Assembly: GCF_056746865.1 (NCBI RefSeq)
Contig: NZ_CM163382.1
DNA: 64,000 nucleotides
Direction: 5' to 3' (one strand)
Shown here: positions 54,238 to 54,445 of the stretch, one piece after another
How the letters are laid out: each line of letters begins with the position of its first letter
How positions within the stretch are numbered: position 1 is the first letter of the stretch
Notes under the pieces: model-generated
What the model saw: only the letters and a program-made list of their open reading frames with translations
What the model was told of the DNA's origin: nothing
Databases searched by the model: none
Program-made: the position numbers and the translations under genes

Positions 54238-54445
54238 GTTCACTGCCGTACAGGCAGCTTAGAAATCGACGGGGTGCGGTAAAACCTTTGCGAACGCGTT
54301 CACTGCCGTACAGGCAGCTTAGAAAGCTGTATTCGGCAAATGAAGTGGATGTTGATGGTTCACTGCCGTACAGGCTGCTTAGAAATTCGTACTTAACGAA
54401 CTGTTGCTCCTCTGCTGGTTCACTGTCGAACAGGCAGATAAAATG
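54238..54445 (+). CRISPR. Orphan type I-F CRISPR array: three 28-bp repeats, a degenerate terminal repeat and three 32-bp spacers; no cas genes in the window
   Basis: Repeats GTTCACTGCCGTACAGGCAGCTTAGAAA at 54238-54265, 54298-54325 and 54358-54385 (third has one mismatch); degenerate copy at 54418-54445; spacers at 54266-54297, 54326-54357 and 54386-54417; AT-rich leader upstream. Confidence 0.9.

Follow-up and report, generated by a model that had tools for sequence, protein, structure and literature searches.

A probable orphan type I-F CRISPR array between clpA and serW in Escherichia coli, with three spacers that match I-F cas genes

The DNA described here is a stretch of 64 kb (referred to below as the window), which corresponds to the rimO to ftsK region of Escherichia coli and is 99.992% identical to strain 118UI (NZ_CP032515.1). 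The 118UI record is collinear with the window, and its coordinates are obtained by adding 992123 to the window positions given below. A short type I-F CRISPR array lies between clpA, read on the plus strand, and the tRNA gene serW, read on the minus strand, which is where the original prediction had placed it. The features of this locus, in order along the window, are as follows.

51749-54025, plus strand: clpA, an open reading frame annotated as clpA in 118UI; the upstream flanking core gene
54048-54081, plus strand: intrinsic terminator of clpA, a terminator-like site made up of an inverted repeat (hairpin of 15 pairs) and a T-run
about 54082-54237, plus strand: CRISPR leader, a homologue of the leader that precedes the clpA-proximal array in complete I-F systems
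54238-54445, plus strand: type I-F CRISPR array of four 28-nt repeats and three 32-nt spacers
54238-54265, plus strand: repeat 1, exact I-F consensus GTTCACTGCCGTACAGGCAGCTTAGAAA; CRISPR-DR4 score 50.1 bits
54266-54297, plus strand: spacer 1, anti-cas3f, matching the sense strand at codons 425-435 (STGCGKTFANA)
54298-54325, plus strand: repeat 2, exact I-F consensus GTTCACTGCCGTACAGGCAGCTTAGAAA; CRISPR-DR4 score 50.1 bits
54326-54357, plus strand: spacer 2, anti-cas1f, matching the sense strand at codons 92-103
54358-54385, plus strand: repeat 3, with A to T at repeat position 19 (54376; GGCTGC); CRISPR-DR4 score 40.0 bits
54386-54417, plus strand: spacer 3, anti-cas3f, matching the antisense strand at codons 508-518
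54418-54445, plus strand: repeat 4, the degenerate terminal repeat, differing at 7 of 28 positions and keeping the hairpin-forming core
54448-54863, read on the minus strand: RtT-like tandem repeat, 2.3 copies of a 179-nt unit, adjoining the array
54457-54470, both strands: bidirectional terminator-like hairpin (CGTACTTTCGTACG); T-runs occur on either strand
54845-54932, minus strand: serW, tRNA-Ser(GGA)
55186-55404, minus strand: infA

The array is regular throughout. Its repeats start at 54238, 54298, 54358 and 54418, so that the start-to-start spacing is exactly 60, 60 and 60 nt, and the three 32-nt spacers between the four repeats are each distinct. Of the architecture expected from inspection of the letters, the exact spacer length, the degenerate terminal repeat and the quoted spacer letters are all seen; the expectation of three canonical repeats holds for repeats 1 and 2, which are exact, whereas repeat 3 has one substitution. 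The repeat type is I-F (Rfam CRISPR-DR4, RF01317; Kunin repeat cluster 4), and repeats 1-3 align to this consensus as anticipated, with scores of 50.1, 50.1 and 40.0 bits, where the gathering score is 35 bits; the two perfect copies have E = 4e-10, and the match is far beyond chance. The terminal repeat scores 24 bits, under the gathering score, and its tail, ending in CAGATAAAATG, is shared with the terminal repeat of K-12. No further repeat copy with up to 8 mismatches is found on either strand of the 64-kb window.

Upstream, the terminator of clpA separates clpA transcription from the array, and the sequence between this terminator and repeat 1 is a CRISPR leader. In a five-way alignment of the window with K-12, UTI89, LR882978 and Rb-50, the leader has a mean column identity of 93%, and the ~45 nt next to repeat 1 hardly vary among the five sequences. 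An AT-rich leader had been proposed at 54140-54237; the leader homology is there, but it extends over about 54082-54237. A promoter scan detected no strict sigma-70 consensus site on the plus strand of the leader, and so the case for transcription of the array rests on the literature and not on the window sequence: native orphan arrays are constitutively transcribed according to Almendros et al. 2016, as summarised in reviews from the Mojica laboratory (PMC5972030, PMC8616872). A weak candidate picked by eye just 5' of repeat 1 (TTAACA ... TAGTAT) has non-standard spacing, and no promoter is claimed there. Upstream of serW, two good promoter-like sites are present on the minus strand, which makes the array (plus strand) and the serW/RtT unit (minus strand) convergent, the two meeting at the shared hairpin at 54457-54470. 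This hairpin is probably the end both of the pre-crRNA on the plus strand, where the position of the end is inferred, and of the convergent serW/RtT transcript on the minus strand.

The array is not accompanied by cas genes. When the six UTI89 I-F Cas proteins were compared with the 64 kb by tblastn, the only matches were of 11-12 amino acids and came from the spacers themselves, and the annotation of 118UI across the matching region lists the housekeeping genes of the rimO to ftsK interval and no cas gene. Both approaches therefore agree with the original prediction that cas and csy genes are lacking from the 64 kb, and since neither cas1f, cas3f, csy1-3 nor cas6f lies adjacent, the array is an orphan and not part of a complete system.

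Whether the spacers are directed against cas genes or against phages and plasmids had been left to a search of BLASTN type, and in such a search three of three spacers match cas1f or cas3f at 29-32 of 32 positions. Judged by these matches, all three are anti-cas spacers: spacer 1 corresponds to cas3f, spacer 2 to cas1f and spacer 3 again to cas3f. Protospacers were mapped in three variants of the E. coli I-F cas genes, namely those of UTI89, LR882978 (a 92%-identity variant) and Rb-50. Spacer 1 matches cas3f of LR882978 and Rb-50 at 32/32 positions and that of UTI89 at 31/32 (mismatch at position 12); spacer 2 matches cas1f of Rb-50 at 32/32, of UTI89 at 31/32 and of LR882978 at 29/32; and spacer 3 matches cas3f of LR882978 at 32/32 and those of UTI89 and Rb-50 at 31/32 (mismatch at position 31). 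The mismatches to the common UTI89-type allele are thus at spacer positions 12, 10 and 31 for spacers 1, 2 and 3, respectively, all of them outside the PAM-proximal seed. Within cas3f, the targets of spacers 1 and 3 are 219 nt apart and on opposite strands. The context of the spacer-1 target, A-S-T-G-C-G-K-T, can be read off the sequence as motif I of SF2 helicases (AxTGxGKT), and escape mutations are constrained there.

The PAM of the I-F system is GG on the complementary strand, that is, CC 5' of the protospacer (PMC3506596), and a 5'-CC directly precedes the protospacer in nine of nine combinations of spacer and cas variant. Three such dinucleotides would be expected by chance about once in 4,000 cases, so the spacers are true acquisitions made by I-F adaptation and are formally able to direct interference. 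No comparable targets emerged from mobile elements. The whole array, used as query, found no target among 50,697 phages, the best hit being a chance match (24/26, E = 0.7) across a repeat-spacer junction, and neither the array nor the spacers alone found a plasmid protospacer in 72,556 plasmids. Matches to E. coli 'plasmids' were rejected as pieces of chromosome, or whole chromosomes, that are filed as plasmids and carry the same orphan array (one such entry, inspected directly, reads macB-clpA-infA-cydC), and the remaining plasmid matches are unrelated I-F arrays from Legionella, Acinetobacter, Serratia and others that match via the repeat alone. A literal text search of the literature for the three spacer sequences returned no result.

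The distribution of the spacers and of the I-F cas operon was followed in 5,426 complete E. coli genomes. The operon is present in 241 of these, in one copy each, always on the chromosome and never on a plasmid, and in the three cas-positive loci that were examined it lies between clpA and serW/infA, in keeping with the clpA-infA position that had been stated for the E. coli I-F system. Spacer 1 has a match in 1,801 genomes, which after subtraction of the cas3f targets leaves ~1,560 orphan arrays (~29% of genomes), and spacer 2 has a high-identity match in about 450 genomes, its target outside arrays being cas1f. Spacer 3 is matched in 414 genomes, exactly once in each, either as an array spacer or as its target in cas3f, and in none of these 414 do the spacer and its cas3f target occur together. 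The block composed of spacer 2, repeat 3 (with A19T), spacer 3 and the terminal repeat is found in 171 genomes, with 20 of 20 sampled full-length matches being 100% identical, and the 171 genomes with this block and the 241 with the operon add up to about the 414 that match spacer 3. In strain 118UI, the single match for spacers 2 and 3 is the array itself; 118UI and the 171 array-bearing genomes, which serve as proxies for the source genome, have one match only in each case. Some close relatives have the order S1-S1-S2-S3, in which spacer 1 is duplicated. Since a single locus holds either the array or the cas operon, as alternative alleles, the two would exclude each other whatever the model, and this by itself does not prove active defence.

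The repeats differ in their capacity to form the hairpin on which Cas6f acts. Repeats 1 and 2 each form a 5-bp stem (positions 6-10 with 16-20) closed by a 5-nt loop (-8.6 kcal/mol), and repeat 4 forms the same 5-bp stem with one G-U pair (-5.9 kcal/mol). Repeat 3 loses the U7-A19 pair through the A19U change, and its predicted fold is a 3-bp stem of -4.5 kcal/mol, no better than shuffled sequences. We take A19 to be, in addition, a base that is directly recognised by Cas6f (Csy4). On this structural model the substitution would be expected to compromise the spacer-2 crRNA at its 3' handle and to hinder the freeing of the 5' handle in the spacer-3 crRNA, and spacer 1 is probably the sole guide with intact repeats on both sides. 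All genomes that were sampled from the 171 with the spacer 2-spacer 3 array carry A19T, and this hairpin-breaking substitution is apparently fixed in the lineage. The broken hairpin of repeat 3 speaks against strong selection on at least two of the three guides.

Arrays of this kind are already known. Touchon and Rocha 2010 described the class, named the array CRISPR3 and proposed an anti-CRISPR or anti-cas role for it (PMC2886076), and Almendros et al. 2016 (Nat Microbiol 1:16081) tested such arrays under the name 'orphan CRISPR4 arrays'. As recounted in the reviews cited above (PMC5972030, PMC8616872), orphan arrays provide interference and primed adaptation against plasmids that carry a full I-F cas set. 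These sources bear out the statement in the original prediction that cas-less strains keep arrays with anti-cas spacers (PMC2886076, PMC5972030, PMC8616872). An orphan array is present at the clpA-serW locus in most E. coli, and the copy in the window carries three anti-cas spacers. It is very probable, in our view, that the array in the window is this known cas-less, orphan anti-cas I-F array of the clpA-serW locus and has the corresponding capability. Its identity, its locus, the homology of its leader, the absence of cas genes and the PAM-flanked targets of three of three spacers are direct observations, and the three-spacer array can by analogy be expected to behave like the published ones.

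In the proposed model, transcription of the array from its leader would yield a pre-crRNA about 240 nt long, which would be inert in this cell because Cas6f, the Csy proteins and Cas2/3 are absent. Were an E. coli-type I-F cas operon to enter and be expressed, the incoming Cas6f would cut the resident pre-crRNA and the incoming Csy complex would take up the guides of the array. Cas2/3 would then be sent to cas3f (by spacers 1 and 3) and to cas1f (by spacer 2), so that the incoming DNA would be destroyed or, if it had already been integrated, the recombinant would be killed. The net outcome would be a lineage that stays without an active I-F system. Against such an active defence stands the lack of a natural vehicle, since the cas genes in question were found on none of the plasmids and phages in the databases searched. 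The I-F cas genes of E. coli sit at the array's own locus, so in nature they would come in by homologous replacement, with the array's region as the part replaced.

A different account of how the array arose and is maintained, which PMC2886076 credits to Diez-Villasenor et al. 2010, sees it as a passive relic: an ancestral I-F system acquired spacers against its own cas genes, only survivors with deleted cas genes remained, and the array has been kept since by inertia as a fossil. This account concerns origin and maintenance and is partly compatible with the orphan anti-cas explanation; we consider it possible, although it is on the unlikely side. Self-acquisition would give perfect matches to E. 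coli's own I-F cas alleles with correct PAMs, as seen here, and the origin of spacers 1 and 3 from nearby cas3f sites on opposite strands is what clustered (primed) self-acquisition would produce. The broken hairpin of repeat 3 in this lineage and the duplicated spacer 1 in relatives look like drift by repeat recombination, the targets are carried by no plasmid or phage, and the allelism of array and operon at a single locus makes exclusion automatic. Inertia fits less well with the argument of Touchon and Rocha that cas-matching spacers have been kept across most E. coli branches while others were lost and that cas-containing arrays are monophyletic (PMC2886076), with the persistence of spacer 1 in ~29% of complete genomes, and with K-12 keeping a different anti-cas spacer. 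It also fits less well with the experiments, as described in PMC5972030 and PMC8616872, in which orphan arrays drove interference and priming against cas-bearing plasmids.

The remaining alternatives concern what the array is. The view of the source genome is confined to 64 kb, and I-F cas genes might in principle lie outside it, on another part of the chromosome or on a plasmid that the strain carries, in which case the array would not be an orphan. We judge this to be very unlikely: the system would then destroy itself, as its guides are aimed, with correct PAMs, at precisely those cas genes, the 5,426 genomes have no more than one operon each and none on a plasmid (with the operon at clpA-serW in the three loci examined), spacer 3 and its target are never found in one genome, and in 118UI, which is 99.99% identical, the only match to spacers 2 and 3 is the array. 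That the spacers derive from a phage or plasmid and resemble cas genes incidentally would be in line with the I-F arrays of cas-positive E. coli, which mostly match plasmids (PMC2886076), but is highly improbable given that the phage matches are at chance level (24/26, E = 0.7), that the good plasmid matches are the same orphan array on misfiled chromosome pieces, and that cas1f and cas3f are matched at 29-32 of 32 positions next to CC PAMs. Equally hard to credit is the annotation of the region as a gene for a 132-aa 'hypothetical protein' (WP_012602745.1; 54143-54541, minus strand; PGAP). An open frame does exist there and is annotated in many RefSeq genomes, but in its translation FLSxLYGSE recurs at 20-residue intervals, as nothing more than the CRISPR repeat in reverse, and the translation also holds the Cas3f fragment PAEEQQFVKYE from spacer 3. 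The length of the frame follows the number of spacers (152 aa in WP8-S17-ESBL-12 compared with 132 aa here), and no CDS is called under most matches in shorter arrays. With its repeat-derived translation and its spacer-3 Cas3f peptide, the minus-strand frame was rejected as a real gene and is regarded as an annotation artefact.

Returning to the orphan anti-cas array itself, a more speculative suggestion, which we consider doubtful, is that it is being pared down to one guide that is hard to escape, namely spacer 1. It builds on the broken hairpin of repeat 3 in all array-bearing genomes sampled, which leaves spacer 1 as the one crRNA between two intact repeats, on the position of the spacer-1 target in the codons for helicase motif I of Cas3 and on the retention of this spacer in ~29% of complete genomes. 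If the array were being reduced in this way, the crippled distal units may be neutral baggage, or may serve as decoy RNA that binds Cas6f or Csy proteins, and would not act as guides. Were this true, the allele would offer a natural experiment on the features of anti-cas repeats and spacers that selection upholds.

The keeping of guides against CRISPR genes argues that having an active I-F system can be to a bacterium's disadvantage, and the lack of a plasmid or phage carrying the targeted cas genes bears on how the proposed defence would be triggered in nature. What is added here to the published description of the class are the cas targets and PAMs of all three spacers and fresh counts from 5,426 complete genomes. 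On the practical side, a false 'hypothetical protein' is annotated across the array in RefSeq genomes.

The closest complete relatives of the array are the I-F systems of E. coli B2 strains (LF82, UTI89 and ED1a; PMC3506596). Constitutive activity of I-F has been reported in E. coli (Almendros et al. 2012, PMC3506596). In cas-positive strains, the order is clpA, leader, array, cas1f, cas3f, csy1-3, cas6f, serW, second array and infA. With a leader that aligns at 93% with those of clpA-proximal arrays, the array in the window is the positional and leader homologue of the clpA-proximal array, without the cas genes and the second array. Repeat, leader, orientation and PAM are the same in the B2 systems and in the window. 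In contrast to the window, the complete loci contain cas1f-cas3f-csy1-4, serW and infA flank a second array there, and their own spacers do not include spacers 1-3 of the window. The serW allele of these loci differs from that of the window by a compensatory swap in the T-stem, and this differing allele travels with the cas island. A repeat-like hairpin is present inside the cas operon of UTI89. The leader of Rb-50 is similar to that of the window, and a recent loss of cas genes from a shared lineage was considered for this strain; its flank is only 98.4% identical to the window compared with 97.7-98.1% for unrelated strains, which speaks neither clearly for nor clearly against such a relationship.

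The orphan I-F anti-cas arrays themselves (CRISPR3, PMC2886076; or CRISPR4) share with the window the locus (clpA/clpS to aat), the repeat, the leader and the type of terminal repeat, and, as in the window, there are no I-F cas genes and every spacer matches cas1f or cas3f with an I-F PAM. The 2010 paper lists 7 anti-cas spacers (PMC2886076). K-12 has the same arrangement with one orphan spacer, which matches cas1f next to a CC PAM, and the allele in the window is a plain member of this class, with no categorical difference, set apart within it by three spacers, compared with one in K-12, and by the point mutation in the hairpin of the third repeat.

Two further systems resemble the array in part. 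Self-targeting by the I-F system of Pectobacterium atrosepticum (PMC3630108) likewise involves spacers that match the host species' own genes, and where guide, target and Cas proteins occur together, lethality or deletions are expected. The array in the window differs in that its target is the CRISPR machinery, and not an island or prophage, and is absent from the cell, so that its guides are harmless and latent. Isolated or mini arrays on mobile elements and RNA anti-CRISPRs (Racrs, PMC10651486) are, like the array in the window, cas-less sources of repeat RNAs that act via the Cas proteins of another. They are borne by phages or plasmids and exploit or jam the Cas proteins of the host, whereas the array in the window is chromosomal and, in the model proposed here, would turn the Cas proteins of an invader against the invader's own cas genes.

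In the cas-less array, repeat 3 carries an A-to-T change at position 19 (window 54376), which disrupts the Cas6f hairpin at its second base pair, and the same change is found in all 20 full-length rows sampled out of the 171 genomes with the spacer 2-spacer 3 block. In other genomes, spacer 2 is followed by a repeat, the match extending over 63 nt at 98.4%, and this repeat is probably the unmutated form of repeat 3. The array also exists in a 60-bp longer form, which is found in at least 30 genomes and is represented by the comparison locus from WP8-S17-ESBL-12:

L001 (WP8-S17-ESBL-12) 3209-3476, array with a tandem spacer 1 (S1), in the order S1-S1-S2-S3

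Carriers of this order are close relatives, with flanks that are 100% identical, and the arrangement is evidence of a duplication mediated by repeats in an array that lacks cas genes.

Across the array and from it as far as serW lie the following features, of which the annotated protein is a false gene call:

window 54143-54541, minus strand, "hypothetical protein" of 132 aa, WP_012602745.1 (RefSeq/PGAP annotation)
window 54448-54863, RtT-like tandem repeat (179-nt unit, 2.3 copies) separating the terminal CRISPR repeat from serW
window 54845-54932, minus strand, serW

The frame of WP_012602745.1 spans the CRISPR array and reaches into the first RtT unit, and its translation contains FLSxLYGSE each 20 aa, which is the CRISPR repeat read in reverse; it was therefore rejected as a real gene. 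The false call is carried in well over a hundred genomes. Each RtT-like unit includes some 19 nt from the 3' end of serW and one copy of the terminator hairpin, and the units of the window score 43.6 and 41.6 bits with the Rfam RtT model (RF00391), slightly below its gathering score of 45. Homologous units, for which PGAP often uses the name "RtT sRNA", are present in 3,367 of the 5,426 complete E. coli genomes surveyed (median 2 places), and copy number is variable: there are none at serW in K-12, and WP8-S17-ESBL-12 has one fewer than the window.

Several PLSDB "plasmid" entries containing the clpA-serW locus (CP088669.1, NZ_CP141089.1, NZ_CP134387.1 and NZ_CP148399.1, among others) are chromosomes or chromosome fragments of 0.07-4.9 Mb with macB-clpA-infA-cydC, and such misfiled records would yield false calls of a "plasmid-borne CRISPR".

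Elsewhere in the window, further features are found, two of them at positions transferred from the annotation of strain 118UI:

window 10737-10815, minus strand, RybB sRNA, an ordinary known feature (Rfam, 104 bits)
window ~22670-25860 and ~31080-32320, the two 118UI features: a PTS IIC/IIB and sulfatase gene cluster, and a truncated pentapeptide-repeat pseudogene with an unannotated gap after it

Comparison with cas-positive I-F strains involves the following sites, in the coordinates of each locus:

L002 (UTI89) 5989-6076 and L006 (LR882978) 12462-12549, serW adjoining the I-F cas operons
L002 (UTI89 assembly) 7764-8687, csy2 (pseudogene in the annotation, internal stop)
L002 (UTI89) 10290-10317, plus strand of the locus, repeat-like sequence GTAAACTGCCGTACAGGCAGCTCGCGCC in the cas3f-csy1 intergenic gap
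L007 (Rb-50) 17072-17999, distal flank of cas6f, with an AT-rich stretch and the fimbrial gene yehD

Relative to serW of the window and K-12, serW of UTI89 and LR882978 differs in the T stem, where G61C and C77G form a compensatory swap; this points to a separate tRNA-Ser allele that moves together with the I-F cas island. In UTI89, GTAAACTGCCGTACAGGCAGCTCGCGCC has an intact Cas6f-type hairpin in the orientation opposite to the arrays; its role could be that of a regulator or a decoy. Our own translation of UTI89 csy2 likewise contains one stop, and the I-F system of this record may be defective because of the csy2 pseudogene. In Rb-50, cas6f is followed by the AT-rich stretch and yehD in place of serW and the second array, which indicates that the distal end of its I-F locus is rearranged.
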